NCBI GenBank assembly: GCA_964569225.1
Contig: CAZMTU010000001.1
Span: 2,422 to 66,421, forward strand
Source of the DNA: an uncultured Lachnospiraceae bacterium
GTDB taxonomy: Bacteria; Bacillota; Clostridia; Oscillospirales; CAG-272
Length of the DNA: 64,000 bases
Direction of reading: 5' to 3'
Shown here in pieces: positions 7,871 through 32,836 of the stretch. Positions within the stretch are counted from its first letter, which is position 1. Each line of letters opens with the position of its first letter. The translations under genes and the position numbers were made by a program. Below the pieces are notes generated by a model that did not search any database, was not told where the DNA came from, and saw only the letters and a program-made list of their open reading frames with translations.

Positions 7871-10093
7871 ATGAAGCTGAACAGGCGATATGCCCGGAGC
7901 ATCCGGGAAAATCTGTCATTTTACATATCCGCCGCCGTACTGACGGTGGCAACGCTGCTGATGTTTTATCTGTTTAATATTGCGGGAAACGCAATCCTCG
8001 AATTTTCGGCTGATTTCTATCCGGCGCACCGCCTTGAAGACGCAAACTTTACAACCTATTTGCCCATCCCCGACGGGGTGCTCGCGGAGCTTGAAACGGA
8101 TTATAACCTTACGTTGGAGGAAGAACACTACCTCAACATTCAAACCGACGGAACAACGGCACGAATATTTAAAAAAACAGACAAAATTGACCTTTATGAA
8201 ATAACCGAAGGCACGGATGTTAAAAGCGATGATGAAATTATCATTTCCGAGGGCTATGCGGTCAATATGGCGGTTCATCTTGGAGACAGCTTGAAAATTG
8301 GGGACAAAACATATACAGTTGCCGGATTTTTTCAACGCCCCGATTACCTTTATATGCTGGAAAACGAGGATGATTCTTATAAAAATATTTCCACCTTTTA
8401 TCTTGCCTATATGACAGACAGCGCGTTTGAGGCGCTGGGCGACAGCGGCTTTCACTATCTCGTGCGCTACAATGAGGACAACAGCACCGATTTCCGCAAA
8501 GCCGTTCATGAGACCTACATCATGCGCAGCTATTTGTCCAAAGAAGAAAATCCCCGTATTACGATGGTGGATACGCAGGCACAGATGTTTATTGTCATGT
8601 CCTATGTGATTCTATGCGTTTTGCCGCTGATCGCGGTGGCGCTGGTCAGTATCATTATCAGTCGGAAAGTCAAAAGCGAACAGCGGATGATCGGGACGCT
8701 TTCGGCGCTTGGTTATAAAAAAAGGCAGCTTATGCGTCATTACGCCGGCTTTGCCGCGCTTCCCGGACTGACCGGCGGTATTCTAACAGCGGTTTTATCG
8801 GCTATCCTTGCGCAGCCCTACAGCGAACTGGGGCTGCAGGATTATGAACCGATGCGTGTTCACGGCCATTTGAATCCGTTGATTGCCGTACTGGGCATTA
8901 TTGTTCCGACGGCAATGTATGTCATCGCCGCCCTGTTATCGGTCAGACGGTTACTTCAAAAAGATACGGTTTTGCTGCTTGCCGCCAATGCCGACGCATC
9001 AGACAAAAAAAGAAAGCGGATATTGGCGGACAAAAAAATGTCTTTCAGAAAAAAATATGCCATTCGTTCGGTAATCGGCAATCCAATGCGCAGCTTTGTG
9101 GTGCTGCTTGGCGTTTTTCTCGGTTGCTTTATCATGCTGTTCGGTTATGCGGTATTCGACTCGATACAGGCTATGATGGATACCGCGTCTGATACATTGG
9201 GCAGCTACGAATACCAATATATACTCAGTGAATTAATGGAGGAGAATCCTTACGGCGGCGAAAAGCTGCTGGTCGCATCAGCGGAAGACGCGAACGGCGC
9301 TGCTTTGACGCTGCTGGGAACCGAAACAAGCAATCCGTATTTAAATTTTCTTGATGAAAGCGGAAATAAAGTGGATATTGGGGATAAGTACTATATTACT
9401 TCCCTATATGCTACAATTCACGGTTTACAGGAGGGCGACAGTATCACCCTATATAATCCGCTGTCCATGGAAAAAAAGGAGATCATTATCAGCGGTATTT
9501 TACAAAATGATACAATGAAAGCCGTTTTTACATCGCTTGACAATACGGCAGAAATTATCGGCGTAAAGGCAGGTGTATACAACGCGCTGATAAGCGACAG
9601 GAAGTTGGATATTCCGCAGGAAAAGATAGCGAAGGAAATCCGGAAGTCTTCGCTCAATGAGCAGATGCAGACCATGCTCGATCAAATGGGGATTATGATC
9701 GTTCTTATGATCGTACTTGGCGTGATAATTTGTATTGCCTCCATTTATGTGGCGATCAATATGCTGGTGACCGAAAACCGAAGCAGCATTTCTATGCTTA
9801 AGGTGCTCGGTTACAAGGATCGACAAATCGACCGAATTGTGCTGGCTGCCAACCATATTTTCCTTCCGATCGGAATTCTGCTTTCGATTCCGGCCGCTTA
9901 TGCCGTATGCGCCACCTTTTACCGGTCGTTCGCGGATATGTTCAGTATGCTGATAACCGCGTCAATTGCTCCGAAAAGCTATGTCATATCGATTCTTCTG
10001 ACTGCTGCCAGTTATTTTGCTTCCTTGGCGCTCGCCCGCCGAAAGGTTAAACGGGTAGATATGATCGAAAGTCTGAAGGATAATAGAGAATAA
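7871..10093 (+). CDS. ABC transporter permease with two FtsX-type modules
   Basis: 740 aa. Each TM1 is followed by a large extracytoplasmic domain, then a 3-TM FtsX-like block (residues about 250-370 and 620-740). Adjacent to the ATPase. Confidence 0.85.
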   Translation: MKLNRRYARSIRENLSFYISAAVLTVATLLMFYLFNIAGNAILEFSADFYPAHRLEDANFTTYLPIPDGVLAELETDYNLTLEEEHYLNIQTDGTTARIFKKTDKIDLYEITEGTDVKSDDEIIISEGYAVNMAVHLGDSLKIGDKTYTVAGFFQRPDYLYMLENEDDSYKNISTFYLAYMTDSAFEALGDSGFHYLVRYNEDNSTDFRKAVHETYIMRSYLSKEENPRITMVDTQAQMFIVMSYVILCVLPLIAVALVSIIISRKVKSEQRMIGTLSALGYKKRQLMRHYAGFAALPGLTGGILTAVLSAILAQPYSELGLQDYEPMRVHGHLNPLIAVLGIIVPTAMYVIAALLSVRRLLQKDTVLLLAANADASDKKRKRILADKKMSFRKKYAIRSVIGNPMRSFVVLLGVFLGCFIMLFGYAVFDSIQAMMDTASDTLGSYEYQYILSELMEENPYGGEKLLVASAEDANGAALTLLGTETSNPYLNFLDESGNKVDIGDKYYITSLYATIHGLQEGDSITLYNPLSMEKKEIIISGILQNDTMKAVFTSLDNTAEIIGVKAGVYNALISDRKLDIPQEKIAKEIRKSSLNEQMQTMLDQMGIMIVLMIVLGVIICIASIYVAINMLVTENRSSISMLKVLGYKDRQIDRIVLAANHIFLPIGILLSIPAAYAVCATFYRSFADMFSMLITASIAPKSYVISILLTAASYFASLALARRKVKRVDMIESLKDNRE

Positions 10094-10107
10094 GAACGGT
10101 AGACGGT

Positions 10108-10899
10108 ATGGAAAAAATCAATATACAAGGCGTACCGGAAACGATGCTGCAAACGCTCTATGCCCGCGCCGCCTATTCTGAACAAAAAGGGCATCTATTT
10201 TATGACGCCAAAGCAATTGAGCTTGTTTCGCGCATAGATTACAATTTCACACACGCGGCGAGTGACGCCATGATGTCCAACGGCGTCATTGCCCGAACGG
10301 TTCTGCTGGACCGCATGGTCTGTGACTTTATCAAAATGCATCCGGACGGAACGGTGATTAACATTACCTGCGGACTGGACACTCGGTTTTATAGGGTCGA
10401 TAATGGGAAAATACGCTGGTACAATCTCGATCTTCCCGAAACAGCCGCTCTTCGCGAACGGCTGCTTCAGGAATCCGGACGGATATCCGTGATTGCAAAA
10501 TCAGCTATGGACGGCACCTGGGCTGATGAAATAGAGCCGCCCAAGGACAAAACGCTGGTACTTATTGAAGGTCTTGTCATGTATCTGACCGAACCGGATG
10601 TAAGGCAGATCCTATCGATCATCGACCGCCGCTTCACGGAGGCGGAAATTATCATGGAAATAATGAATCCGTGGGTTGTGAAGCACATGAAGGAACGTTC
10701 CATTGAGTCAACCGGTGCGAAATTCACTTGGGGACTGAAATCCGGCAGGGCACTGAAGCCGATAGCGCCAAACCTCACTTGGATAAAAGACGTTAGTTTG
10801 GCGGAAGGAATGAAGCTCATTTACCCGGCTTACCGGCTATTCGGATGGATTCCGGCAGTTAAATCCATCTCAAACAAGCTTGTCCTATTGAAAAAGTAA
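10108..10899 (+). CDS. SAM-dependent O-methyltransferase (leucine carboxyl MT / TcmP-like family)
   Basis: N-terminus GVPETMLQTLYARAAYS and INITCGLDTRFYR resemble the LCM/TcmP family, judged by eye. Confidence 0.7.
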   Translation: MEKINIQGVPETMLQTLYARAAYSEQKGHLFYDAKAIELVSRIDYNFTHAASDAMMSNGVIARTVLLDRMVCDFIKMHPDGTVINITCGLDTRFYRVDNGKIRWYNLDLPETAALRERLLQESGRISVIAKSAMDGTWADEIEPPKDKTLVLIEGLVMYLTEPDVRQILSIIDRRFTEAEIIMEIMNPWVVKHMKERSIESTGAKFTWGLKSGRALKPIAPNLTWIKDVSLAEGMKLIYPAYRLFGWIPAVKSISNKLVLLKK

Positions 10900-10908
10900 A
10901 GTGAAACG

Positions 10909-11109
10909 GTGAAACATGAAAAACAAACCGGTGACGGCGAACAGAAAAAAGCGCTATGCCTGCTGCTATCTGCCGTATTCATCTACATGCTGATTACCAT
11001 AGGGATTGTGCTCGTTTACAGACAGAATGGCGTCAGTAATACAGTCAAGAAAATTGTACAAAACGGGTACCTATCTGCTGCTTTTGGCATTATCACTAAT
11101 GCTGATTAG
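10909..11109 (+). CDS. Small TM ORF, possibly the detached N-terminus of the downstream CPBP protease
   Basis: GTG-start 66-aa ORF with one TM (ALCLLLSAVFIYMLITIGIVLVY). It overlaps the next ORF in another frame. An ATG at 10916 opens frame 2 (MKNKPVTANRKK) just before an A6 run. Confidence 0.3.
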   Translation: MKHEKQTGDGEQKKALCLLLSAVFIYMLITIGIVLVYRQNGVSNTVKKIVQNGYLSAAFGIITNAD

Positions 11110-11536
11110 ATTCTCAAAGAAACCGCCGGCGCACTTCGGACTGTTTTTTCGAAAGCTGCCAATGCAGATAATGACCGGCGCCGCTATCGGGGCAGGACTG
11201 ACCGTGCTTATGATGATCTTCGGAAGCTTCCCAGCCTTTCCGAACCGCTTTGCATATATTCTGTTCAGTCAGCTTCTGGTGGGACTATCCGAGGAAACCT
11301 TCTGGCGCGGGTTTGTATTACAGTCGGTCTGGGATATTTCAGCCTCGAAAGACCAAGCGATATTCTTCTCCTCACTACTGTTCGGGCTCAGCCATTTCCC
11401 CATAGGCGGAAGCGTCGCGCAGGTAATAGCCGCCTTTCTGATCGGTATTCTTCTCGCCGTACTGCGTACTGAATTTAAGGAAACGGTAGGCATTCCCGCT
11501 GTTGCGGTGGGACATGCTATTTCCAATATATTTTAA
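11006..11536 (+). CDS. CPBP-family intramembrane glutamic endopeptidase (Abi/CAAX-protease-like); N-terminus uncertain
   Basis: Motifs LSEETFWRGF (EExxxR), FGLSHF and HAISN. See the frameshift finding. Confidence 0.7.
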   Translation: MCSFTDRMASVIQSRKLYKTGTYLLLLALSLMLIRFSKKPPAHFGLFFRKLPMQIMTGAAIGAGLTVLMMIFGSFPAFPNRFAYILFSQLLVGLSEETFWRGFVLQSVWDISASKDQAIFFSSLLFGLSHFPIGGSVAQVIAAFLIGILLAVLRTEFKETVGIPAVAVGHAISNIF

Positions 11537-11555
11537 TAAATAAGGGAGCAGACTT

Positions 11556-12191
11556 ATGAAAGACTATGAAGCGCTTTCCAAAAAGCATTTTAATGAGCAG
11601 GCGGCAGAGTATGACGCCAGAAATACTGCCTACTATTCCAAATATCCGAAGCTGAGCTGCAAAGATGCAGCCAACCGTCTGCAAAAAATAACCTATAGCA
11701 GTCTGCTGGATGTAGGATGCGGAACAGGATATCTCATCGGGCTGCTGCGAAAGCAGAAACAGGCGGCGTATTACGGTTTAGATCTGTCGCCGGAGATGCT
11801 GAAAATGGCGCGTGCAAAATTTGATAATACCGTTGTACTGACAGAAGGCTCGGCGGATTGTCTGCCTTATGCCGACGGTACCTTTGACGTGGTGACCTGT
11901 ATCCAAAGCTTCCATCACTATCCCTATCCCGAAAAGGCAATGTCAGAGGCATATCGCGTGTTAAAGCCGGGCGGACTGTACATGCTTTCCGATACTGGCA
12001 TGGGTGGATTGATGAAGTGGATATACAATCATCTTTTACTGAAGATAGCCAGTTCTGGCGACTATGCTGTTGCGTCCCGAAAAGATATTGAACGCATGAT
12101 GAAAACAGCCGGCTTTCAGATTGCCGATGCACATCAAGTATCTAGGGTTATCTATACGGTTACAGGAAAAAAGCCGTCAAAAAAAAGTTAA
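11556..12191 (+). CDS. Class I SAM-dependent methyltransferase (UbiE/Methyltransf_11-like)
   Basis: LLDVGCGTGY motif I, DVVTCIQSFHHYP, VLKPGGLYML. AAGGGAG RBS. Confidence 0.85.
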   Translation: MKDYEALSKKHFNEQAAEYDARNTAYYSKYPKLSCKDAANRLQKITYSSLLDVGCGTGYLIGLLRKQKQAAYYGLDLSPEMLKMARAKFDNTVVLTEGSADCLPYADGTFDVVTCIQSFHHYPYPEKAMSEAYRVLKPGGLYMLSDTGMGGLMKWIYNHLLLKIASSGDYAVASRKDIERMMKTAGFQIADAHQVSRVIYTVTGKKPSKKS

Positions 12192-12216
12192 GCTGAGAAA
12201 AATTTCCGAAATAGTA

Positions 12217-12245
12217 TTGACAAATACCTACAGATATGCTATGAT
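12217..12245 (+). promoter_or_regulatory. Sigma-A promoter: TTGACA, 17-nt spacer, TGcTATGAT
   Basis: TTGACA at 12217-12222 and TGCTATGAT at 12237-12245. Confidence 0.6.
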
Positions 12246-12251
12246 AAATGC

Positions 12252-12269
12252 AGTTAGCTTGATCTAACC
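12252..12269. promoter_or_regulatory. Operator AGTTAG-N6-CTAACc (site 2a), overlapping the predicted start
   Basis: AGTTAGCTTGATCTAACC immediately follows the -10. Confidence 0.4.
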
Positions 12270-12309
12270 GCGTTTATTATAGCGGGTATGATTATTTTTT
12301 AATTTCTTT

Positions 12310-12327
12310 AGTTAGTTTAGACTAACT
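12310..12327. promoter_or_regulatory. Operator AGTTAG-N6-CTAACT (site 2b)
   Basis: AGTTAGTTTAGACTAACT. Half-sites are identical to site 1 at 4380-4397. Confidence 0.5.
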
Positions 12328-12366
12328 TAAAGGCATTGTAAAACATTTAAAGAAAGGATTCCATGT

Positions 12367-12654
12367 ATGAGTGTTGTAATTGTAGGCGGAAACGAAAGAA
12401 TGGAATGTCAGTATGCAGATATATGTAAAAATTACGGCTGCAAGGCTAAAATTTTTACAAAAGAAAACGGTTCCCTGAAAAAGAAAATGGGATGTCCTGA
12501 CTTACTGATTCTGTTCACAGGAACGGTATCTCACAAAATGGTAATCAGCGCCGCGCAGGAAGCCAAACGAAACAATGTTCCCATCGCTCGCGTACACACC
12601 AGCAGTGTTGCGGCACTTCACAGCGTTCTTTCAGAGCATTTCGCGGCAAACTGA
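12367..12654 (+). CDS. DUF2325-like small protein
   Basis: 95 aa: MSVVIVGGNERMECQYADICKNYGCKAKIF...LILFTGTVSHKMV. This resembles the DUF2325 family from memory. AAAGGA RBS with 8-nt spacing. Confidence 0.65.
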   Translation: MSVVIVGGNERMECQYADICKNYGCKAKIFTKENGSLKKKMGCPDLLILFTGTVSHKMVISAAQEAKRNNVPIARVHTSSVAALHSVLSEHFAAN

Positions 12655-12910
12655 TCGAATTAGCTGTAGTTTGACTGAGCGCGCTTTTGATCTGATACCT
12701 GAAATTCCGCATGACAGCTGCATTCTTTCCGCTTTCGGCGGCTGCCAACAACCCTATCCCTGAAAGCAGTCAAAAAAACGGAACGGTTTCTGCGCGGTCT
12801 CTCAAGGATCAATCAGCGCTTTAAAAGCAAGACAGGCGCGCTTCGCGTTCATAACGGTTTAGCATATATTTATATATATATAAATTTTATAGAAAAGAGG
12901 GTTTACAAAT

Positions 12911-13333
12911 ATGAGTAAAATTGCAGTGGTTTATTGGAGCGGTACCGGAAACACCGAACTGATGGCGTCAAAGGTTGCGGAAGGCGCAGCCGCGGCTGGC
13001 GCGGAGGTTACTTCCTTTACCGCCTCACAGTTTAGCGCGGATCTGATGGACCAGTTTGACGCGATCGCGTTTGGCTGCCCTTCTATGGGGGTAGAACAGT
13101 TGGAGGACAGCGAGTTTGAACCGATGTTCACCGGCTGTGAACCAAAGCTCAGCGGAAAAAAGATTGCGCTGTTCGGTTCCTACGGCTGGGGAGACGGCGA
13201 ATGGATGCGCAACTGGGAAGAAACCTGCACCGGCGACGGCGCCGTATTTGCCTGCGACAGTGTCATCTGCAATGACGCGCCTGATGCGGATGCGGAAGCC
13301 GCCTGCATTGCGCTTGGAAAAGCATTGGCATAA
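12911..13333 (+). CDS. Short-chain flavodoxin
   Basis: MSKIAVVYWSGTGNTE FMN-phosphate loop and GSYGWGDGEWM. Confidence 0.9.
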   Translation: MSKIAVVYWSGTGNTELMASKVAEGAAAAGAEVTSFTASQFSADLMDQFDAIAFGCPSMGVEQLEDSEFEPMFTGCEPKLSGKKIALFGSYGWGDGEWMRNWEETCTGDGAVFACDSVICNDAPDADAEAACIALGKALA

Positions 13334-13374
13334 TTATATATTTCATAAATAAGAGGACGCATTATGCGCCCTCT

Positions 13375-13540
13375 TAGACTGAAGATAAAGCCCAATTAGC
13401 GCTTTTTTCTTTGGAGGTTTACTCCAACCGCTTATTAAGGGAGCTTTTTAAAAAAGTTCCCTTAATAACCTTCAAAAACGCTTGAATACTGACTTGCTTC
13501 TATGTTTTAGATTGTAAAACATAAATTTATCTACACTTTA
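13375..13540. repeat. Intergenic repeat module 'beta', copy A
   Basis: Alignable by eye with 28623-28770 (same orientation), and with 52958-53112 and 57455-57600 (inverted). Approximate edges. Confidence 0.7.
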
Positions 13541-13756
13541 AGCGCGCGCTTTATACCGCTTCTTAAGATGCAGACAAAGCTAAATTGGGACTTTTTGTCT
13601 AAAATTTTACGCTAATCGAAGCTTTATTTACCCCCTAAAAGCTTCTAAAAAGCTATAGGGTATGCGCGGCGTGCTTTGCCTTTGCTTTTACAGGCATACA
13701 AAGCGTCCGCCAGTGGGTTCTAAATCCGTTTGACCCGCTGAAACAATTAAAAACCG

Positions 13757-14527
13757 CTAACAAGCTGTACTTGTTTGCCCTGTCAGATCCTTAATGACCT
13801 CTCCGGCAATGATCAGCCCTACTACCGACGGCACAAAAGCATTGCTGCCGGGTACCTGCCGGCGCTGCGTACACTTGCGAGCGGTTCCGGGCGGGCATAT
13901 ACAGTGTGATTTGCAGCTAATCGCCGCATCTTCATAGGGAATGATCGGTTTTTCTCTGGAATAGACCACCTTCAGGCGGTCTATTTTTCTTTTTCTCAGT
14001 TCATACCGCATAACTCTTGCCAGCGGGCAGACTGAGGTTTCATAAATATCAGCTACTTCAAACGCGGTAGGATCCAGCTTATTTCCGGCGCCCATTGAAC
14101 TGATAATTTGCGTTCCGGCTGCTTGGGCATTCACTGCCAATGCGATCTTACCGGTCACCGTATCTATAGCGTCAATAATGTAGTCATATTCATAAAAATT
14201 AAACTGACCGGCGGTTTCGGGCATGTAAAAGGTCTTGTAAACGCGCACTTTTGCGTCCGGATTGATTTCGGCGATCCGTTCTGCCGCTACATCAACTTTA
14301 TACCTGCCTACCGTTTTCCGGGTAGCGTAAAGCTGTCGGTTAAGATTAGTCAGGCATACCTTATCATCGTCAATCAAATCGACAGCGCCTATTCCGCTGC
14401 GGATCAGTGCTTCGGTTGCATAACCGCCTACACCGCCGATCCCAAAAATCGCTACCCTTGAGGAGGCCAGCCTTTGCATAGCTTCCGCTCCTAAAAGAAG
14501 CTGCGTTCTGGAAAACTGATTCAGCAT
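13757..14527 (-). CDS. tcdA: ThiF/MoeB-family E1-like enzyme, TcdA (tRNA t6A dehydratase)-like
   Basis: FSRTQLLLG...VAIFGIGGVGGYATEAL...DDDKVCLTNLNRQ. Start moved to the ATG at 14527 (GGGG RBS, 8-nt spacing). The track ORF starts at the GTG at 14536. Confidence 0.8.
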   Translation of the reverse strand: MLNQFSRTQLLLGAEAMQRLASSRVAIFGIGGVGGYATEALIRSGIGAVDLIDDDKVCLTNLNRQLYATRKTVGRYKVDVAAERIAEINPDAKVRVYKTFYMPETAGQFNFYEYDYIIDAIDTVTGKIALAVNAQAAGTQIISSMGAGNKLDPTAFEVADIYETSVCPLARVMRYELRKRKIDRLKVVYSREKPIIPYEDAAISCKSHCICPPGTARKCTQRRQVPGSNAFVPSVVGLIIAGEVIKDLTGQTSTAC

Positions 14528-14553
14528 TCGATTCACCCCTGCCTTTTTATGTC

Positions 14554-15294
14554 TTATTCAAACAGCCTGCTGAAGAAATAAGGAAGCTGCTTCTGCCACC
14601 AGCACCAATCATGGCTGACGTCGTTTCCCCAATAATCTACCCAAGCCGGAATGCTTTTTTGCCGAAGGATCTGATCCATATGGCGGGTGCCCGCAAGCAA
14701 TTCATCTTCCCAAGCGCCCTGTCCGACGCAAAGAATGATCCGGCTTTGCCGATAAAGCGTCATATAAGGGTGATCTTCGGGCATCCCCTGCAAAAAATGA
14801 ACAGGCGAATTATCGTATACCAGCGGCTCCATGTAGCTGTGGAAAAAGTAGGAAGCGTCAAACAGCCCGCTGAGCGAAACAATAACGTCAAACAGATCGG
14901 GACGGCGAAAGAAAAAGTTGCCTGAATGGACGCCGCCCATACTGCACCCGGTGACGATCGCTTTGCCGGTACTGCCGGTCAGCGCTTTGACTCGCGGAAC
15001 CAGCTCCTCGGTGATATAACGGAACCAATGCTCGTGCAGCAGAATCCGTTCATGAGGGTCGCCGCCCTCGTAAGACCATGTTTCATTGTCAATGCTGTCC
15101 GGACAGATTAGTGCCAGTCTGCCGCTCTCGATCCAGGGCGAAAGGGTATTCACCATTCCGAAGTTTTCAAAATCAAAAAATCGTCCGTCCTGAGGAGGAA
15201 AGGCAAAACAGAGCTTTCCACTGCTCCCATAGAGCTTGAATTCCATTTCCCTGCCCAAATTCTGACTGTATTCCTTAAAATATCGGATATTCAT
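14554..15294 (-). CDS. Esterase-family alpha/beta hydrolase (PF00756-like)
   Basis: GCSMGG nucleophile elbow and esterase-D-like layout. ATGA overlap with the upstream ATP-grasp gene. Confidence 0.8.
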   Translation of the reverse strand: MNIRYFKEYSQNLGREMEFKLYGSSGKLCFAFPPQDGRFFDFENFGMVNTLSPWIESGRLALICPDSIDNETWSYEGGDPHERILLHEHWFRYITEELVPRVKALTGSTGKAIVTGCSMGGVHSGNFFFRRPDLFDVIVSLSGLFDASYFFHSYMEPLVYDNSPVHFLQGMPEDHPYMTLYRQSRIILCVGQGAWEDELLAGTRHMDQILRQKSIPAWVDYWGNDVSHDWCWWQKQLPYFFSRLFE

Positions 15295-16499
15295 TGCCTA
15301 TCCTCCGCAGACTTTTTTTCGTGAATAAATCGGATAAACGCCAATGTTTCCTCCAAATCGGCGGCATGGGCGGTATACATCTGATTGCCCATAGAAGGGA
15401 CCATAATTTCAGGCATTCGCTCGCACATTACTATCCGATCGCCGTATTTTGCCAAGATTTCCTCATGAGTGTGTGCATAGATGTAAATATCCCGCCGGCT
15501 GGCATAGACGCAGTAATGATCTTCCTGCCGGTCAGGCAGCAAACGTCTGTCAGCCGTGACCATATCTGCCCAAATTTGATAAACGTCAGTGGAATGCGCA
15601 TAGTTCATCATGTCGGGCGTATAGCCGCCTGCAGGCCGCATGTTGACCTCCAGCCCAACGAAATCACCCGCTTCGCCCAGTCCTGCCCTTGCCTTGGTCA
15701 GACGGAAAAATTCCAAATGCACGAACCGGCTCTTTACATTGAACGCCCTGACAGTAGCCCGCCCCGCCTTTTGCAGCGCCTCCGGCAGCTTGGCTGCCGT
15801 ATAGTAGGCTAAATCGATCTGACGGTTTACAATATCCATTATGGAAGGCGGCCAAACAGTCATCGACTCAAATAAAGGATTGCAGGTACTGTCAGTAATG
15901 GCGTCATAAGAGCAGATATCCCCCTCTACAAATTCCTCCATTACATAAGCCGCGGCAGGCAAATCCGCAAAAAAGCGTACCAGATCGGCGTCATTTTCCA
16001 GCTTATAGGTATGAGTAGCCCCAACGCCGTTATCCGGCTTCACGATGACAGGATACCCCACCTCCGCAAGAAACGCTTCAGCCGCCGCCTGAGTAGTGAC
16101 CTTATGACATCTTGCCGTCGGCACACCTGCCAGCGCATAGTACTGCTTCATTGCAAATTTGCTTTTGTATTTGCCGACCTCGTCAAGCGAGGCGCCGGTA
16201 GTGATATGAAAATCAGTCCGCAGCCGCGCGTCCTGCTCCAGCCAATATTCATTGTTAGATTCCAGCCAGTCGATCCTTCCGTATTTAAATGAAAAAAAGG
16301 CGACCGCGCGGTAAACCTGATCGTAATCTCCCAGATCGCTTACCCAATAGTATTCGGTCAGCGCCGCCTTCAGATGATCCTCCAGCATATCATAGGGCGC
16401 ATCTCCAATCCCCAGCACATTTACACCGCTTTTCCTCAGTCGTTCACAGAAATTCCAATAGGTGTGGGGAAAGCTGGGTGAAATAAAGATAAAATTCAT
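15291..16499 (-). CDS. ATP-grasp domain carboxylate-amine ligase, substrate unknown
   Basis: VIVKPDNGVGA, EEFVEGD, and GLEVNMRPAGG (the E-x-N metal site) are characteristic of the ATP-grasp fold. Confidence 0.8.
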   Translation of the reverse strand: MNFIFISPSFPHTYWNFCERLRKSGVNVLGIGDAPYDMLEDHLKAALTEYYWVSDLGDYDQVYRAVAFFSFKYGRIDWLESNNEYWLEQDARLRTDFHITTGASLDEVGKYKSKFAMKQYYALAGVPTARCHKVTTQAAAEAFLAEVGYPVIVKPDNGVGATHTYKLENDADLVRFFADLPAAAYVMEEFVEGDICSYDAITDSTCNPLFESMTVWPPSIMDIVNRQIDLAYYTAAKLPEALQKAGRATVRAFNVKSRFVHLEFFRLTKARAGLGEAGDFVGLEVNMRPAGGYTPDMMNYAHSTDVYQIWADMVTADRRLLPDRQEDHYCVYASRRDIYIYAHTHEEILAKYGDRIVMCERMPEIMVPSMGNQMYTAHAADLEETLAFIRFIHEKKSAEDRQ

Positions 16500-16516
16500 C
16501 TGATTACTTCCTTTGT

Positions 16517-17323
16517 TTATAAAGTTCTATTCATGCTGCCGGTCTGATAGCCGCCCAAATCAAGGGTTACATAATCGAATCCAATTGCGCGGAACATGCG
16601 ATCCAATCTTTCAGGCAGCGCGTCCCGCAGCAGCCTCGGAAATTCCGAGGGCGCTATTTCAATTCGGGCAAGCCTTCCGTGAATACGTACCCTCACCTGA
16701 TGAAAGCCTAAATCCAATAAAATTTGCTCAGCGTGGTCCACCATAGAAAGCTTTTCTTCGGTAATGGTTTCTCCGTATACAAACCGGGAGGACAGGCAGG
16801 CAAAGGATTGCTTATTCCATGTGGGGAGTCCCAGCTCCCTCGATAATTGCCGGATATCCGATTTGGTCAGTCCGGCATACCGCAAGGGGCTTTTGACACC
16901 CAGCTCCGCTACCGCGGTCAGTCCGGGTCTGTAATCGCCGGTATCGTCCAGATTAGAGCCTTCCGCAACATAGGGCAATCCATGGGCTTTAGCGATCTCG
17001 CCGATTTTCGTAAACAACTCTTTTTTACAAAGATAGCAGCGATTTTTTGGATTCTGCCGAAATCCCTCAATCGAAAGCTCTTCCGATTCACAAATAATAT
17101 GGCGGATTCCTTCCTGCCGACAGAAGGCGATCGCCTCATCCAGCTCCCGCTTAGGGAACGTACATGAACGGGCCGTCACCGCAAGCACCCGATCGCCCAA
17201 CAGATCATGCGCGCGTTTGAGCAGAAGGGTTGAGTCCACACCGGATGAAAAGGCGACCGCAACGCCGCCAAGCTGCTTCAAATAATCGTCCAGCTTAACC
17301 TTTTTCTGATAAAGTTCATCCAT
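16517..17323 (-). CDS. LarE-like PP-loop ATP-dependent sulfur transferase (TIGR00268-type)
   Basis: PP-loop AFSSGVDS, CxxC in NRCYLCKKELF, and a LarE-type cysteine in FACLSSRF. Start taken at the ATG at 17323 (GGAGG RBS), 1 nt from the upstream stop. Confidence 0.8.
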   Translation of the reverse strand: MDELYQKKVKLDDYLKQLGGVAVAFSSGVDSTLLLKRAHDLLGDRVLAVTARSCTFPKRELDEAIAFCRQEGIRHIICESEELSIEGFRQNPKNRCYLCKKELFTKIGEIAKAHGLPYVAEGSNLDDTGDYRPGLTAVAELGVKSPLRYAGLTKSDIRQLSRELGLPTWNKQSFACLSSRFVYGETITEEKLSMVDHAEQILLDLGFHQVRVRIHGRLARIEIAPSEFPRLLRDALPERLDRMFRAIGFDYVTLDLGGYQTGSMNRTL

Positions 17324-17324
17324 T

Positions 17325-18542
17325 TCAGACCTCCTGAGACAGCAATCCTGTTTTTTCAAGAGCCTGCTTCAGATCCGCAATGATATCCTCCGCATCCTCG
17401 ATTCCCACGCTGAAGCGGAAAAATCCACCATGAAACTCCTCAGGGAATAAATACTGCCGTTCATCGTTCTCGCCAAGAAAGACAATTAGGCTTTCGTCAT
17501 GTCCAAGCGATACAGCAGAAGTAATTACTCGCAGATAACTGACAAAACGGTTGTGTGTATCATGATCGGCATTCAAACCAAAGGAAAGCACGCCGCCGAA
17601 GCCGGGAGCCATCTGTTTTTTCGCGATCTCATATTCCCTGCGACTAGGCAGTCCGGGATAGGCCACAAAGCGCACGCAAGGCAGGGTTTCCAGCCATTCC
17701 GCAACCTTCAGCGCGTTTGCATTGTGCTGTCTCATCCGTAAGGGAAGGGTAACGGATCCCCGCATGATCAGCCATGCGTTGAAAGGACTGATGGTACCGC
17801 CTAAATTAACCTGTGACTGAGCGCGAATAAGGTCTAAGTATTCTTTTTTGCCGATAATGGCGCCGCCCATTGCGTCACCGTGACCGTTTATATACTTGGT
17901 CAGGCTTTCCACCGTAAAATCCGCTCCCAATTCCAGCGGCCGCTGATTAAAGGGAGAAGCAAAAGTATTATCCACTGACAGCATAGCCCCGTTTTCATGA
18001 GCAATTTGAGCCATTTCGGTAATATCAGTAATCGTTAGAGTAGGATTGCCGGGGGTTTCAATATGAATCAGCTTGGTATTTGGCCGGATAGCAGATCTGA
18101 CTTTTTCAGGATCAGAGGTGTCTACAATGGTGGTTTCCACGCCGAACTTCTGATTAAACAGCTCATGGAGCAGCCGGTAAACGGCAATATAGGTAACGCT
18201 GGAGAAAATCACATGATCGCCGCTTTTCAACAGCGCGAAAAACAGCCCGGAAAGGGCTGCAACACCGCTCGCCAGTACAATGCAGTCCTCGCCGCCCTCC
18301 AGCGACGCCAGCTTTTCCTGCAAATACTGCTGATTGGAACCGCCGTTGCGGGTATACAGATTTTTACCGGCGCTGCTCCAGTTAAGATCGCTGGGATCAT
18401 AGGGCAGTTCGTAGCTGTTTGCCATCGTAATCGGACGCTTGATCGCGCCGGTTTCGCTATCCACATCATTTCCGGCATGAACCGCTCTGGTTTGAAATCC
18501 CAGTTCGTTGCCGTAAGTTCTTTTATTCATTTTCAGCTTCAT
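17325..18542 (-). CDS. PLP-dependent Cys/Met-metabolism (trans-sulfuration / gamma-lyase family) enzyme
   Basis: FQTRAVHAG and SLTKYINGHGD (PLP lysine). The usual YxRxxNPT is divergent (YTRNGGSNQ). The start could be 18530 instead. Confidence 0.85.
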   Translation of the reverse strand: MKLKMNKRTYGNELGFQTRAVHAGNDVDSETGAIKRPITMANSYELPYDPSDLNWSSAGKNLYTRNGGSNQQYLQEKLASLEGGEDCIVLASGVAALSGLFFALLKSGDHVIFSSVTYIAVYRLLHELFNQKFGVETTIVDTSDPEKVRSAIRPNTKLIHIETPGNPTLTITDITEMAQIAHENGAMLSVDNTFASPFNQRPLELGADFTVESLTKYINGHGDAMGGAIIGKKEYLDLIRAQSQVNLGGTISPFNAWLIMRGSVTLPLRMRQHNANALKVAEWLETLPCVRFVAYPGLPSRREYEIAKKQMAPGFGGVLSFGLNADHDTHNRFVSYLRVITSAVSLGHDESLIVFLGENDERQYLFPEEFHGGFFRFSVGIEDAEDIIADLKQALEKTGLLSQEV

Positions 18543-18595
18543 TTCCTTCTAACATTAAATTAACGGAATCATAACCTACCTATTTGATATGCTTT

Positions 18596-18624
18596 ATCAT
18601 ACACGAAAAAAACGCGTTTGTCAA
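18596..18624 (-). promoter_or_regulatory. Sigma-A promoter: TTGACA, 17-nt spacer, TATGAT, for the 18.5-13.8 kb operon
   Basis: rc of 18619-18624 is TTGACA and rc of 18596-18601 is TATGAT. This leaves a 5' UTR of about 47 nt. Confidence 0.55.
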
Positions 18625-18728
18625 TAGAAACAGCAAATAATCGTCACTTTTCAGATTTGTTTCAAATAGACGGTTAAAAACAGAGGTTTAAGCGGTAAAA
18701 ATTCTTTTTACTTTTCACAATTTATCAC

Positions 18729-18757
18729 TTGACAAGCCATTTTTCCGCTGTTATAAT
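18729..18757 (+). promoter_or_regulatory. Sigma-A promoter: TTGACA, 17-nt spacer, TATAAT
   Basis: TTGACA at 18729-18734 and TATAAT at 18752-18757, divergent from the previous promoter. Confidence 0.6.
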
Positions 18758-18802
18758 AAAACTTACTATATAGATAGAGATTATAGGGATTAGTGAAAGA
18801 AA

Positions 18803-20296
18803 ATGGGAAAAACCATTCAAACGGCAGCATTGCAAATCGGAGGAATGAGCTGCGCAAATTGCCGGAGCAAGATTGAAGAAAAGCTGCGAAATACGCAGGG
18901 GGTGAAGCAGGCAGCAGTCAGCTTTCGTACCGGAATCGCCAATATCACCTATGACGCTGAGCAGATCGAGCTGAAGGAATTGATTTACGCTATTGAATCT
19001 TTGGGCTATACTGTATCCGCTCAAGGACAGCGCATCGTGAAAACCGGCAGGACCGTTTTGCTGGCGCTCGTTATTCTGCTGCTGTACGGCGGGCTTGATC
19101 ACTTCGGATTTCTCAACCTGCTGGCGCCCTCTACGCTTGCAAATACCACTATGGGCTACAGCATGCTCTTTGTCACCGGACTTTTGACCTCAGCGCACTG
19201 TATGGCGATGTGCGGCGGCATTAATCTTTCCCAAAGCATCGGCGCCCAGCAGGGGGCGGTCCATCCAAAGCCTCACCGGTCTGCCGTTTTAATCCCAACC
19301 TTTCTTTATAATACGGGACGAATTCTTTCTTATGGGGCAACCGGACTGATTTTAGGCTTTATAGGTATGCTGGTCGGCGGTCAGAATGCCGGTCTGCCCA
19401 CTGTATGGCAGGGAATGCTGAAAATATTGGCAGGCGTCTGGATGGTAGGAATGGGCGTCAATATGCTGAATATTTTCCCGCCGCTTCGAAAACTCCATAT
19501 CGGACCGCCCAAAAAAATCGTGCAAACCATCGGCAAGGCTGGATACAATAGCAAAAAGCCATTTGTAATCGGTCTGCTGAACGGTCTGATGCCCTGCGGA
19601 CCGCTGCAATCCATGCAGATCGTTGCACTGGCAAGCGGAAACCCGCTTACCGGAATGCTGTCCATGCTGTTTTTCGGATTGGGCACACTTCCATTGATGG
19701 CGGGATTTGGTATTTGTGTGTCTTGGCTGGGCAAGAAATTCACCCATGCCGTTACGCAAATCGGCTCCGTTTTGGTAGTCGTATTAGGATTTGCTATGCT
19801 TTCACAGGGGGGCAATTTATCAGGCTGGTTTGGGGGAGCGCAATTATTCGGCGTCCTACTGGCACTTAGTGTTCTTTGCGTTTTTTTGACCGTTCCCTAC
19901 CGAAAACCGCTTCAAAAAAGAGTATGTATCGCTGTTTCCTTCTGCCTTGCGCTTACCGTTTTACTGACATGGCATTTTCTGTACCCGAATTTGGCTGGCA
20001 GCGATCAGCATTCGGCTGTTCAGATCATTGACGGTCAGCAGATCGTTTACAGCACGCTGTCTCCGGGACAGTATCCGAATATTACAGTACAGGCAGGCAT
20101 GCCGGTAAAATGGATCATTGAAGCCCCCAAAGGATCTATTAACGGCTGTAATAATCGGATGATCATTTTAGATTACGGAATTGAATATACCTTTCAGATC
20201 GGGAAAAATATCATTACATTCACACCCGAAACGGTCGGAACAGTGGATTATAGCTGCTGGATGGGCATGATACACGGAACAATAACCGTACAATAA
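18803..20296 (+). CDS. Fusion membrane protein: HMA domain, DsbD_2/TauE-like TM core, C-terminal cupredoxin-like domain
   Basis: GMSCANC (MxCxxC) at the N-terminus. TM core carries AHCMAMCGG and LMPCGPLQ. C-terminal NGCNN...YSCWMGMIHG resembles a cupredoxin-like metal site. Confidence 0.8.
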   Translation: MGKTIQTAALQIGGMSCANCRSKIEEKLRNTQGVKQAAVSFRTGIANITYDAEQIELKELIYAIESLGYTVSAQGQRIVKTGRTVLLALVILLLYGGLDHFGFLNLLAPSTLANTTMGYSMLFVTGLLTSAHCMAMCGGINLSQSIGAQQGAVHPKPHRSAVLIPTFLYNTGRILSYGATGLILGFIGMLVGGQNAGLPTVWQGMLKILAGVWMVGMGVNMLNIFPPLRKLHIGPPKKIVQTIGKAGYNSKKPFVIGLLNGLMPCGPLQSMQIVALASGNPLTGMLSMLFFGLGTLPLMAGFGICVSWLGKKFTHAVTQIGSVLVVVLGFAMLSQGGNLSGWFGGAQLFGVLLALSVLCVFLTVPYRKPLQKRVCIAVSFCLALTVLLTWHFLYPNLAGSDQHSAVQIIDGQQIVYSTLSPGQYPNITVQAGMPVKWIIEAPKGSINGCNNRMIILDYGIEYTFQIGKNIITFTPETVGTVDYSCWMGMIHGTITVQ

Positions 20297-20311: not shown

Positions 20312-20815
20312 ATGAAAAAAACGAACAAAAGCCTGCTTTGCCGTTTGGGCGCATTGCTGATGGCGCTTGCGATTTTGCCCGCATTAGGGGGATGCGAAGA
20401 CGAAACGGCAGGCGGCGCCCCTAAGCAATTGATTGAACAGGGAGAGGATTTGGTGATCCCGCTTAACGAATTGTCCGCCACCGCTTGCTTTTACAGCGTA
20501 GAGGTAAACGGCACACTAATGGAGATCATTGCTGTAGAGGATACGGACGGCAATATTCGGACCGCTTTCAATACCTGTCAGATTTGCTATGATTCAGGCA
20601 GGGGCTACTATAAACAGGAGGGAAATGTGCTGGTCTGTCAAAACTGCGGCAATCGCTTTACGGTGGATCAGGTAGGCATTGAAGCGGGCGGATGCAATCC
20701 GTGGCCGATTTTTGAACAGGACAGAACGATCACCGACAGTTCGCTGCTGCTGTCTTATGACTATTTGAACAATTCCCGCGGTATTTTTGCCAGTTGGAAA
20801 TCGTCGGGTCGGTAA
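20312..20815 (+). CDS. DUF2318-like lipoprotein with a 4-Cys ribbon
   Basis: Lipobox LGGC after a signal peptide. CQICYDSGRGYYKQEGNVLVCQNCGNRF. AAGGAG RBS. Confidence 0.7.
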   Translation: MKKTNKSLLCRLGALLMALAILPALGGCEDETAGGAPKQLIEQGEDLVIPLNELSATACFYSVEVNGTLMEIIAVEDTDGNIRTAFNTCQICYDSGRGYYKQEGNVLVCQNCGNRFTVDQVGIEAGGCNPWPIFEQDRTITDSSLLLSYDYLNNSRGIFASWKSSGR

Positions 20816-20904: not shown

Positions 20905-20945
20905 AATCGGCAGAGCCGGAACAAATAGTTCCGGCTCTGCCGATT
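20905..20945. terminator. Bidirectional terminator hairpin (18-bp perfect stem)
   Basis: AATCGGCAGAGCCGGAAC-aaata-GTTCCGGCTCTGCCGATT, between convergent genes. Confidence 0.7.
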
Positions 20946-20978: not shown

Positions 20979-21416
20979 TCAGATTACATAATCGTTAGCA
21001 TAGCGCGCCTGCTGCTGATCTACAATATCCTGAAGAGTGATCCCGTCCAGATATTCATTGATGACCCGTTCTAATCCCTGCCATATCGGAAGAGTCGGGC
21101 ATTCATCTCTGCGTGCGCAGATATTGGGCTGGCGCTCTAAACAGGCAACCGGCGCAAGAGAACCTTCGGTCAGACGCAGAATTTCGCCGACCGTGTACTT
21201 TTCAGGCGTCCTTGCCAGCCGGTACCCGCCCTGAAAACCCCGATTGGTCAAAAGAATGTCCGAACGGTTCAGAACCGGTACGATTTGTTCCAGATATTTT
21301 TTGGAGATATTCTGCCGCTCGGCAATATCCTTCAGCGCAATATAACCTTCATTTCCGTGTTCGGCGAGATCGATCAGCATCCGAAGCGCGTAACGTCCCT
21401 TAGTTGAAATTTTCAT
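20979..21416 (-). CDS. Rrf2-family transcriptional regulator with three-Cys cluster motif (IscR/CymR-like)
   Basis: MKISTKGRYALRMLIDLA winged helix. C-x7-C-x5-C in ACLERQPNICARRDEC. Start taken at an internal Met with a GGGGGA RBS. Confidence 0.9.
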   Translation of the reverse strand: MKISTKGRYALRMLIDLAEHGNEGYIALKDIAERQNISKKYLEQIVPVLNRSDILLTNRGFQGGYRLARTPEKYTVGEILRLTEGSLAPVACLERQPNICARRDECPTLPIWQGLERVINEYLDGITLQDIVDQQQARYANDYVI

Positions 21417-21531
21417 GACAGTTCCCCCCATTTCATATCCTAATAATACCATATTTTCAATAGGATTTCAAGCGCAAACAAACCAATTAAATCAATAAAA
21501 CACCCTCTGGCAGCTCGGATGAGCGCATTAT

Positions 21532-23172: not shown

Positions 23173-24159
23173 ATGAACAGCATCGACAATTCAACCCAAA
23201 CATTTGATTTGATGGACACTGCCGAAACCGCAAGAAACCTGACGGTAGAGGTGGAAAAGGTGGTGGTAGGTAAGCAAAACGAAATCAGACTGCTGATCTG
23301 CGCGCTGCTTGCAGGCGTACATGTCCTGATCGAGGACGTTCCCGGCGTGGGCAAGACAACGCTGGCTTCCGCGCTGGCAAAGGCAGCCGGTCTTTCCTTC
23401 AAGCGGGCGCAGTTTACTCCCGATATCATGGCATCGGATATCACCGGTTTCAATATTTACAACCGTCAGACTGAACAATTTGAGTTTCGGGAAGGACTGG
23501 TTATGTGTAATCTGCTGCTGGGCGATGAGATCAACCGGGCTTCCCCAAAAACACAGTCCGCTTTGCTGGAGGCAATGGAGGAAGGCAAGGTTACGGTAGA
23601 CGGTAAAACCTATTCGCTGCCTTCTCCCTTTATGGTGATCGCGACTCAAAATCCCCATGGCTTTGTCGGTACCTATCCGCTGCCTGAAGCCCAGCTGGAC
23701 CGTTTCGCCATTAAGCTGAGCATGGGCTATCCTACCGAGGAACAGGAAACCGAAATTCTGATGGGCCGCAGAGGAAATAATCCGCTGGACCGCGTGAAGG
23801 CGATTACCGATGTGGATTGCGTGGCAAAAATGCGCCGCACTACCGCTTCGGTTACGGTTGATGAAGAAGTTTGCAAATATATTGTCCGATTGGTTGCCGC
23901 TACCCGTAAAAATCCGGGGCTGTCCAGAGGCGCTTCTCCCCGCGCTTCATTGGCGCTTATGCGTATGACACAGGCGTATGCCGTTTTGCATGAGCGGGAT
24001 TTTGTGGTGCCTGAGGATGTAAAGGCGGTATTCGTCCGCACGATTGCTCACCGTCTGGTGCTGACGCAGGAGGCAAAGCTCGCCCGCACCACCCCTGAGT
24101 CTGTTTTGCAGGATATTCTTCAGCGCACGGAAGTTCCTTACCGTGGCTCCAGAATATAA
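23173..24159 (+). CDS. MoxR-family AAA+ ATPase
   Basis: Walker A DVPGVGKT, Walker B LLGDEINR, ATQNP sensor region. Confidence 0.9.
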   Translation: MNSIDNSTQTFDLMDTAETARNLTVEVEKVVVGKQNEIRLLICALLAGVHVLIEDVPGVGKTTLASALAKAAGLSFKRAQFTPDIMASDITGFNIYNRQTEQFEFREGLVMCNLLLGDEINRASPKTQSALLEAMEEGKVTVDGKTYSLPSPFMVIATQNPHGFVGTYPLPEAQLDRFAIKLSMGYPTEEQETEILMGRRGNNPLDRVKAITDVDCVAKMRRTTASVTVDEEVCKYIVRLVAATRKNPGLSRGASPRASLALMRMTQAYAVLHERDFVVPEDVKAVFVRTIAHRLVLTQEAKLARTTPESVLQDILQRTEVPYRGSRI

Positions 24160-24165
24160 GCTGCC

Positions 24166-30559: not shown

Positions 30560-30752
30560 AATCTGTTTGTTTTATGCGGCGGAGAAAGAACGTATGTTCT
30601 TTCTCCGCTTATTTTCCTTGCATTAAAATAGATGCATGTATTTTTTTGTCAGTATTGTCTATTGAAATAGACAATACTTTTTTATAAGCGACAAATAATG
30701 CGATTTTTTGCGCACGCGTTGTGTTATAGTGAGAAAAAAGGAGGAAATTCGT

Positions 30753-32800: not shown

Positions 32801-32836
32801 TTGCTTGACTAAACAAAAGACAGAAAGGAAGTACTT

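Follow-up and report, generated by a model that had tools for sequence, protein, structure and literature searches.

Sulfur insertion of the TtuA-TtuB-TtuC and ThiF-ThiS type pairs an E1-like adenylase with a PP-loop iron-sulfur (Fe-S) enzyme. The PP-loop enzyme LarE of Thermotoga maritima binds a [4Fe-4S] cluster through a CxxC motif and a distal cysteine, a pattern shared by the majority of LarE homologs, and LarE of this type draws its sulfur from a cysteine desulfurase (PMC9283937). The E1-like enzyme TcdA of E. coli uses K+ and is reported to have no four-cysteine (Cys4) site, and the dependence of ct6A on CsdA/CsdE has been called enigmatic (PMC4405576); the role of TcdA cysteines was described as unproven as of 2026 (PMC13139853). 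Clostridial regulators of the Rrf2 family respond to cysteine, and their genes adjoin cysK or iscSU-trmU (PMC2940859, PMC3828012). Here, we describe a five-gene operon that encodes a LarE, a TcdA and three further enzymes near an Rrf2-family gene, in a 64,000-nucleotide (nt) stretch of contig CAZMTU010000001.1 from an uncultured Lachnospiraceae bacterium (hereafter "the window"). An earlier note on this DNA had proposed that a single pathway, encoded by these five genes, makes a compound containing a thiocarboxylate or a thioamide. We favor, with moderate confidence, the interpretation that they form a lineage-specific operon of a CymR/IscR-like sulfur regulon, one that would join separately conserved modules (a pyridoxal phosphate (PLP) enzyme, a [4Fe-4S]-type LarE, an ATP-grasp ligase with a PF00756 esterase, and TcdA), and not a fixed thio-metabolite pathway.

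Gene positions were taken from the listing of open reading frames (ORFs) in the window, and the junctions were read off the sequence itself. The five genes are consecutive on the minus strand and encode, in order of transcription, a methionine-gamma-lyase-like PLP enzyme (17325-18542), LarE (16517-17323), the ATP-grasp ligase (15291-16499), the esterase (14554-15294) and TcdA (13757-14536). A Shine-Dalgarno sequence is present at each junction. A single nucleotide lies between the stop codon of the PLP enzyme gene and the ATG of larE (TGA-A-ATG; GGAGGTCTGAAATG), larE and the ATP-grasp gene are separated by 17 nt that include the ribosome-binding site AAGGAAG, the ATP-grasp and esterase genes overlap at an ATGA, and the spacing between the esterase and TcdA genes is 17 nt or 26 nt, depending on whether TcdA starts at a GTG or an ATG. 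The LarE ORF is open from position 17359, and the public NCBI gene call is exactly the 268-amino-acid (aa) product that starts at the ATG at 17323. Within positions 13300-18900, a promoter scan returned two matches to at least 11 of the 12 consensus positions. One is a sigma-70-type promoter for the operon, TTGACA-17-TATGAT (18596-18624, minus strand; 11/12), which is the single strong minus-strand promoter-like site in this interval. The other is a divergent promoter, TTGACA-17-TATAAT with an extended TG (18729-18757, plus strand; 12/12), that precedes genes for an HMA-DsbD_2 membrane protein and an FtrD-like lipoprotein. A terminator scan gave six terminator-like matches, compared with 6.8 in shuffled sequence, and hence no excess. 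Rfam found nothing beyond one tRNA, and no riboswitch, in the whole 64-kb window. The tight spacing (1-17 nt or overlapping), the single shared TTGACA-17-TATGAT promoter and the absence of a riboswitch leader had all been read correctly in the earlier note. We rejected riboswitch or leader control, since Rfam at the gathering threshold gave no such element in the window or in 20 ATP-grasp loci, and we likewise rejected a ThiS-like carrier gene within the operon, for which the tight packing leaves no space. With this arrangement, the five genes would be expressed as one transcription unit from the promoter at 18624-18596.

We compared promoter regions across the related loci (about 170 in total, to which the L numbers below refer), and a palindromic operator, aACCTAyTGACAnnrTAGGt, emerged from the comparison. 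In the loci, matches on both strands to the degenerate pattern CYTAYYN6RTAGR were confined to intergenic DNA. A scoring matrix was built from 19 sites, all outside the window. At a threshold of 16 bits or more it gave 72 matches in 2.12 Mb of loci, compared with 2 in shuffled sequence; the 72 matches represent about 40 distinct sites, all but two of which are intergenic, and 22 lie outside the training set. Operators were found upstream of TcdA-LarE (L110, L122, L139 and L154), LarE (L133 and the L142 group), esterase/ATP-grasp genes (L009, L016, L028, L052, L057, L065, L072, L075 and L083), nifS (L057), nifS followed by an ATP-grasp gene (L021), O-acetylhomoserine-sulfhydrylase-like and CysK-like genes (L001, L011 and L035), FtrD-like/DsbD_2 genes (L008 and L009), and Rrf2 genes (L011 and L075). 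Thus, a common palindrome occupies promoters of both the regulator and its putative targets (cysK, nifS, Rrf2, LarE, TcdA-LarE and esterase/ATP-grasp genes), and the loci that bear it span Clostridia, Negativicutes and at least one Treponema bin. The sulfur and Fe-S theme that had been noticed in this neighborhood therefore extends to other genomes, where the operator also precedes cysK, nifS and O-acetylhomoserine-sulfhydrylase-like genes.

The best match to the matrix in the window is a candidate Rrf2-type operator, AAGCATATCAAATAGGTAGGTTAT, that begins 2 nt past the -10 box of the operon promoter (18571-18594, minus strand; 17.4 bits). It ranks first among about 128,000 window positions; in 50 shuffles of the window, the maximum score averaged 12.3 bits and the highest was 17.1. 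The second-best match (21444-21467, minus strand; 12.1 bits) overlaps the promoter of the Rrf2 gene; its score is close to the mean shuffle maximum of 12.3 and is not significant alone. A weak operator-like site, CTTACTATATAGATAGA, lies 4 nt past the -10 box of the divergent promoter (18762-18778, plus strand). It scores 4.8 bits and ranks 17th of 127,954 positions by the matrix, and it is the sole exact match to CYTAYYN6RTAGR in the window, where 0.41 would be expected by chance. An inverted-repeat search had found no palindrome in the divergent intergenic region because the operator there is too degenerate, and the site surfaced solely through cross-genome comparison. The half-site ATAGGAAT presumably resembles the Bacillus subtilis CymR box.

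The Rrf2-family protein encoded near the operon (20979-21452, minus strand; likely start, ATG at 21416) matches PF02082 at 127.7 bits and carries three cysteines spaced C-x7-C-x5-C. Its scores fall below the cut-offs of both the IscR model (114 bits; cut-off 207) and the CymR model (111 bits; cut-off 195). Judging from its family and from the placement of the operator, this protein is probably the repressor of the operon, and it may also regulate its own gene through 21444-21467. In the mechanism we envisage, the CymR/IscR-like protein would repress the operon at the palindromic operator covering the transcription start. A fall in the supply of cysteine or Fe-S would release it from the operator and derepress the operon, with joint expression of a C-S lyase, an Fe-S LarE that depends on sulfide, a ligase-hydrolase pair tied to sulfur-amino-acid metabolism, and TcdA. 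These would be made alongside the divergently encoded membrane pair and in concert with cysK, O-acetylhomoserine-sulfhydrylase-like and nifS/suf genes.

Several observations weigh against such a regulon. The window matches are weak, at 17.4 bits for the operon (training sites score 21-35), 12.1 for the Rrf2 promoter and 4.8 for the DsbD_2 promoter. The motif includes TTGACA, and part of the signal is therefore simply the -35 box. It was first spotted partly in the window and in L008/L009, such that discovery was not fully independent, even with the window excluded from the matrix. A site of at least 16 bits was found in only about 11 of the 80 ATP-grasp loci described below, and, because metagenome bins and redundant contigs make up many of the loci, a contig count should not be read as a number of independent events. 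Moreover, one gene order described below (PLP enzyme, LarE, ATP-grasp) is kept in a second locus and translational coupling extends to four of the five genes, and hence some of the products may yet be linked biochemically. We also considered that the genes might be unrelated housekeeping genes, brought together by neutral rearrangement and under no common regulation, with LarE serving a lar system elsewhere, TcdA making ct6A, and the PLP enzyme and the ATP-grasp/esterase pair having roles of their own; the window motif matches would then be due to chance. The modest operator scores in the window, where the second and third sites are individually not significant, fit this explanation, as do a five-gene order unique to the window lineage and three contexts in which LarE has no related neighbor. 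However, the top two of 128,000 window positions fall in the two promoters in which sites were expected beforehand, other genomes have strong sites of 24-34 bits in front of LarE, TcdA-LarE and esterase/ATP-grasp genes, and the adjacency of LarE and TcdA survives in at least seven flanking contexts and in both orders. We therefore regard an assembly of unrelated genes as unlikely.

To compare gene order, homologs of all window proteins were located by tblastn, from which adjacencies were counted, in an ATP-grasp-anchored set of 80 species-representative loci with 10-kb flanks (L007-L086) and a LarE-anchored set of 80 metagenome contigs with some redundancy. The five-gene order, for which conservation across Clostridia had been proposed as a check, was found in none of the ~170 related loci. 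Among the ATP-grasp loci, LarE lies within 10 kb in 1/80, a TcdA ortholog within 10 kb in 2/80, and an ortholog of the PLP enzyme in 4/80. The ATP-grasp/esterase pair thus occurs without LarE in 79 of 80 species, contrary to the suggestion that it might always accompany the LarE-like gene, and it occurs in phyla with neither LarE nor TcdA nearby. Conversely, none of the 80 LarE contigs carries an ATP-grasp, esterase or PLP enzyme gene. The nearest relatives are bins of Oscillospiraceae and of Eubacteriales. In the closest relative found (L167; identity of 81% for ATP-grasp, 84% for the PLP enzyme and 70% for LarE), the order PLP enzyme, LarE, ATP-grasp recurs, solely there among the loci compared; these genes, followed by an XdhC-like gene and a metNIQ methionine-type ABC transporter (NIL domain, permease and Lipoprotein_9), occupy positions 9241-13834 of that locus. 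Other relatives have mixed operons: LarE, TcdA, FtrD-like and DsbD_2 genes with an Rrf2 gene (L011); ATP-grasp, esterase, DsbD_2, FtrD-like and TcdA genes (L023); and FtrD-like, DsbD_2, ATP-grasp and PLP enzyme genes (L008 and L009). In the window lineage, the ATP-grasp/esterase pair is placed between LarE and TcdA. The window operon is one combination from a recurring pool of separately conserved modules.

These counts bear directly on the proposal that the five enzymes act in sequence on one molecule to make a new thiocarboxylate or thioamide metabolite or cofactor, with the PLP enzyme supplying sulfide, LarE and the E1-like protein performing adenylation and sulfur insertion, the ATP-grasp ligase forming an amide, and the esterase trimming the product. 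The five genes are not kept together in the related loci, and a lack of linkage in most relatives is the pattern that the note proposing this pathway had itself named as evidence against it. Besides the absence of the five genes together from any related locus and the mutual independence of LarE and the ATP-grasp/esterase pair, LarE retains the phosphate-binding residues for its known substrate (PMC9283937), the E1-like protein is far nearer TcdA than the carrier-protein-activating ThiF/MoeB, and there is no space for a ThiS-like carrier gene. In its favor, the genes are tightly translationally coupled, the PLP enzyme gene is adjacent to the ATP-grasp gene in four loci besides L167, where the three-gene order is kept, no lar genes were found among the ORFs scanned in the 64-kb window, and all components reappear, variously combined, with the same membrane pair. 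On balance, we consider a single five-step pathway rather improbable.

The LarE-family PP-loop sulfur insertase (16517-17323, minus strand) is of the CxxC-C ([4Fe-4S]) type. The whole protein matches TIGR00268 at 333.6 bits (curated cut-off, 150) and aligns end to end with Lactiplantibacillus plantarum LarE (5udq; 187-189 bits). Its FACLSSRF motif keeps the equivalent of L. plantarum Cys176, and CYLCKK stands at the place of WYYAKK in that sacrificial enzyme; NPKNRCYLCK and FACLSSRF, which contain the sulfur-donor site, are near-invariant across 82 LarE orthologs. The earlier note had correctly recognized both the FACLSSRF cysteine and the CxxC; as the majority type, a CxxC-C LarE is common and of no special feature. 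Ser180, Arg212 and Arg214 of L. plantarum LarE bind the phosphate group on its substrate, P2CMN (PMC9283937), and their equivalents are kept in the window protein as a Ser in CLSSRF and both Arg in VRVR. The PP-loop reads SSGVDS, as compared with the family motif SGGxDS, with the Asp and Ser retained and the first Gly replaced by Ser; among the 82 orthologs, SSGVDS occurs in 69 and SGGVDS in 13. In line with the statement of the earlier note that larA, larB and larC are absent, no match to LarA PF09861, LarB PF00731 or LarC PF01969 was found among the ORFs scanned in the 64-kb window, and no larA, larB or larC was found among the immediate LarE neighbors examined in other contigs. Because the sequence features of the family are kept, apart from the first Gly of the PP-loop, the product of this LarE is most probably still P2TMN, the nickel-pincer precursor.

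The TcdA-like E1/ThiF-family enzyme (13757-14536, minus strand) is a putative member of the tRNA t6A dehydratase family. It matches E. coli TcdA at 147 bits and ThiF/MoeB at about 56 bits; the best model is NF011696 (TcdA), at 158 bits, which is below the 304-bit cut-off of that model. The Rossmann GxGxxG site is kept (FGIGGVGGYA, aligned with VGIGGVGSWA of E. coli TcdA). A clade-specific Cys4 insert, C-x3-C-x-C-x7-C, lies at about residues 205-222, with a spacing unlike that of the MoeB/ThiF zinc site; in the form SC(R/K)xxCICPPGxxxKC, it is kept in 21 of 22 distinct clostridial TcdA orthologs (loci L011-L165). The TcdA in L133, which adjoins LarE, lacks all four cysteines. A TcdA ortholog directly adjoins LarE in 28 of the 80 LarE contigs (TcdA before LarE in 26 and LarE before TcdA in 2); TcdA is missing beside LarE in 16 contigs that extend at least 1 kb in each direction, and the remaining 36 end too near to LarE. 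The adjacency is found in at least seven flanking contexts, in one of which TcdA-LarE has sufBD-sufS-sufU on one side and metF, a rhodanese-PP-loop gene and nifS on the other. TcdA is therefore the recurrent partner of this LarE clade and not a mere housekeeping passenger, as had been considered possible.

This adjacency raises the possibility that LarE and the Cys4-bearing TcdA are a dedicated pair that acts on tRNA or on each other, a clostridial counterpart of the CsdA-CsdE relay. The substrate of LarE would then not be the nickel-pincer precursor, and the enzyme would either pass sulfur to the TcdA Cys4 insert or thiolate a nucleoside of the t6A/ct6A type. Consistent with such a pair are the conserved adjacency itself, the Cys4 insert in 21/22 orthologs as opposed to the E. 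coli enzyme, the enigmatic need for CsdA/CsdE (PMC4405576), the unproven role of TcdA cysteines (PMC13139853), and the rhodanese-PP-loop, NifS and SUF genes among the neighbors. A literature search gave no paper joining LarE with ThiF/TcdA, and none uniting LarE, ThiF and nickel-pincer. However, LarE scores far above the cut-off of the LarE model and keeps the P2CMN phosphate ligands, TcdA is not nearby in 16 of 44 informative LarE contigs, the L133 TcdA beside LarE is without the four cysteines, and co-regulation alone could account for the adjacency. We therefore view a dedicated LarE-TcdA pair as improbable, and retain the regulon of separate modules as the preferred explanation.

The Cys/Met-family PLP enzyme (17325-18542, minus strand) may start at the second ATG, at 18530; its 405-aa product has no entry in the public protein collection. 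It matches PF01053 (Cys_Met_Meta_PP) at 387 bits, and the catalytic motifs are complete: the translation reads ...KLIHIETPGNPTLTITD... and keeps ETPGNPT, VDNTFASP, SLTKYINGHGD and RFSVGIED, and thus the ETPxNP motif, the Asp of DNTF, the Schiff-base Lys of S-x-T-K and the C-terminal Arg. The earlier claim that the NPT motif is replaced was mistaken, as the translation holds a normal ETPGNPT. The best matches in the PDB are methionine gamma-lyases, with that of Citrobacter freundii at the top (316 bits). The protein scores below every NCBIfam equivalog cut-off (cystathionine gamma-synthase, 345 vs 513; methionine gamma-lyase, 332 vs 550). Hidden Markov models, which had been suggested along with structure prediction as a means of fixing subfamilies, bore out the five family assignments and left the PLP enzyme short of a subfamily. 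An ortholog with 60-84% identity adjoins the ATP-grasp gene in L008, L009, L010, L070 and L167, and the ATP-grasp gene is thus the recurrent partner of the PLP enzyme.

The ATP-grasp ligase (15291-16499, minus strand) belongs to an uncharacterized family and is predicted to have an L-amino-acid-ligase-like fold. Its matches to generic ATP-grasp families are weak, with Pfam scores at threshold (ATP-grasp_3, 24.8 vs 23.2; ATP-grasp_4, 24.8 vs 27), and its thousands of close homologs include none that is specifically named. The AlphaFold2 model has a predicted local distance difference test score (pLDDT) of 78, and its top Foldseek matches are RizA, YwfE/BacD and 3vot (E = 1e-19 to 1e-16, TM-score 0.65-0.71, identity 13-17%), above PurK and biotin carboxylases; the best match by sequence in the PDB is 4wd3. 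The esterase (14554-15294, minus strand; PF00756, 48.5 bits), whose gene is coupled to the ATP-grasp gene by the ATGA overlap, is an alpha/beta hydrolase with a GCSMG nucleophile elbow, and no close or informative solved structure was found for it. A literature search on the pair returned nothing relevant, nor was a curated model found. The ATP-grasp protein is 62-82% identical among Clostridia, Negativicutes, Spirochaetota (including the isolate Bullifex porci), Bacteroidales, Anaerolineae and one Planctomycetes bin, and identity this high across phyla (Bacillota, Spirochaetota, Bacteroidota, Chloroflexota and Planctomycetota) points to horizontal spread, or else to constraint that is very strong. 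The esterase gene adjoins the ATP-grasp gene in 53 of 80 species loci (29 with the ATP-grasp gene first and 24 reversed), is absent in 19, and cannot be scored in the 8 uninformative loci. By identity, the esterases divide into a 55-69% class and a 41-48% class, and these classes follow gene order. We conclude that the ATP-grasp ligase and esterase are an independent, self-contained pair spread over several phyla.

The immediate neighbors of the ATP-grasp core comprise 131 proteins in 121 Pfam families. The commonest are Cys_Met_Meta_PP (5), DsbD_2 with HMA (3), the homoserine O-succinyltransferase family (HTS; 2) and PALP (2), and Cys/Met genes occur beside the core at far above their genome share. 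The ATP-grasp/esterase pair might carry out a step in the sulfur-amino-acid metabolism of gut anaerobes that is widely transferred and has gone unrecognized; taken jointly with the two-enzyme interpretation of LarE and TcdA, we consider this a long shot. A substrate assignment for the pair, which is among the most conserved unnamed ones in these loci, would annotate thousands of genes. We also noted that the esterase/ATP-grasp genes of Selenomonas ruminantium (L001-L003) directly follow a nitrogenase-like cluster of NifH-like, two Oxidored_nitro, radical SAM and Nitro_FeMo-Co genes, and that several genes of the Cys_Met_Meta_PP and PALP families, together with one for an LCM methyltransferase, lie in the flanks; in L001, strong operator sites lie at 478, 15132 and 21102. 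Long antisense ORFs lie opposite the ATP-grasp and esterase genes (15294-15812 and 14108-14461 in the window, both on the plus strand; families f6 and f22 in the loci), with lengths of up to 172 aa in the window and up to ~900 aa in some loci. These ORFs are probably a by-product of the codon composition of the conserved ATP-grasp/esterase genes.

Across from the operon, the divergent promoter precedes a membrane protein with an N-terminal HMA domain, a DsbD_2 core and an extra C-terminal domain according to Pfam (18803-20296, plus strand), and an FtrD-like (PF10080) lipoprotein with a CxxC...CxxC pattern (20312-20815, plus strand; 92.7 bits), whose lipobox is visible in the translation. The presence of a DsbD_2-type membrane protein and a three-cysteine Rrf2 regulator next to the operon, as described in the earlier note, is borne out by Pfam and the ORF listing. 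Homologs of the HMA-DsbD_2 protein are encoded in operons with ATP-grasp, LarE or TcdA genes in L008, L009, L011 and L023, and the FtrD-like gene is linked to the ATP-grasp, esterase, LarE or TcdA modules in these four loci and in L087. A role for the pair in nickel uptake, by analogy with larMNQO, was dropped, as nothing supports it. In the intergenic DNA where the FtrD-like and Rrf2 genes converge, 18 nt are repeated perfectly in inverted orientation around a 5-nt loop (20905-20945); this repeat is probably a bidirectional terminator.

Elsewhere in the window, a gap of ~420 nt without an ORF of at least 60 aa separates the convergent flavodoxin and tcdA genes (13334-13756); it contains hairpin-like palindromes at ~13360-13395 and ~13440-13470 and has no Rfam match. 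A gene of the leucine-carboxyl-methyltransferase family (PF04072; 10108-10899, plus strand) lies 3 kb from the operon, and a member of the same family heads the operator-preceded Cys/Met cluster of Selenomonas (L001, 616-1602), which is perhaps a coincidence. Farther away are a three-gene cluster encoding a MoxR-type AAA ATPase, a DUF58 protein and a 975-aa transglutaminase-domain protein (23173-28430, plus strand); a ParB-like gene followed by a likely parA/parB pair and a likely serS, the latter three assigned by translation alone (30708-35009, plus strand); and spoIIE (39066-41414, plus strand). The ParB-like, parA/parB, serS and spoIIE genes suggest that this part of the window is origin-proximal and comes from a spore former within the Clostridia. 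Two very large ORFs outside the domain scans encode 1353 aa (45363-49424, minus strand) and 1301 aa (53364-57269, minus strand). The ORFs at 50697-52799 (700 aa) and 57736-59322 (528 aa), both on the plus strand, had no Pfam match.

Comparison with described systems separates what is familiar in this locus from what is new. The L-amino acid ligases RizA, YwfE/BacD and BL00235 are the best structural matches of the ATP-grasp protein as modeled. Unlike these ligases, the window protein is paired with an esterase, is encoded outside any antibiotic gene cluster and shares merely 13-17% identity with them, and its family is 62-82% conserved over gut and rumen anaerobes of several phyla, often beside Cys/Met genes. 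The combined presence of genes for an E1-like enzyme and a tri-Cys PP-loop ATPase recalls TtuA-TtuB-TtuC and ThiF-ThiS, an analogy that gave rise to the earlier thiocarboxylate idea; here, however, a ubiquitin-like carrier gene could not be accommodated, and the E1-like protein is of the TcdA type (147 vs ~56 bits). The window LarE resembles the [4Fe-4S] LarE of T. maritima in its family (TIGR00268), its PP-loop, its CxxC and distal Cys, and its P2CMN phosphate ligand equivalents, and by this likeness would be expected to use sulfide derived from a cysteine desulfurase at an open iron site. It differs from the T. maritima protein in having no larA, larB or larC within the 64 kb, an SSGVDS in place of an SGGxDS PP-loop, TcdA instead of lar genes as its recurrent neighbor, and a CymR/IscR-like operator upstream.

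As in the CymR and IscR regulons of Firmicutes (CymR of B. subtilis and Staphylococcus aureus, and those of clostridia), the Rrf2 gene lies beside its putative targets, and the targets include cysK, cysteine desulfurases and tRNA-modification genes (PMC2940859, PMC3828012). LarE, TcdA, the ATP-grasp/esterase pair and the HMA-DsbD_2/FtrD-like pair, by contrast, are not described members of those regulons (PMC2940859, PMC3828012), and the window regulator, with three cysteines like IscR, scores under both equivalog cut-offs. The operator offers a testable regulatory picture, in which a widely conserved Rrf2-type site would tie LarE, TcdA, the ligase-esterase pair and a putative metal- or thiol-handling membrane pair to cysK, O-acetylhomoserine-sulfhydrylase-like and nifS/suf genes. 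The leads that follow are the uncharacterized ligase-esterase pair and the undescribed pairing of LarE with TcdA. Like the E. coli csdA-csdE/tcdA (csdL) locus, the latter ties TcdA genomically to sulfur-trafficking genes, even though its product, ct6A, is sulfur-free (PMC4405576). Unlike in E. coli, the partner here is a LarE PP-loop Fe-S enzyme and not a SufE-like acceptor, with NifS, SUF and rhodanese-PP-loop genes nearby in other genomes, and TcdA itself carries the C-x3-C-x-C-x7-C insert. The recurrence of LarE with TcdA thus provides a new handle on why a sulfur-free tRNA modification needs a sulfur relay in vivo (PMC4405576), a question still unsettled in PMC13139853.

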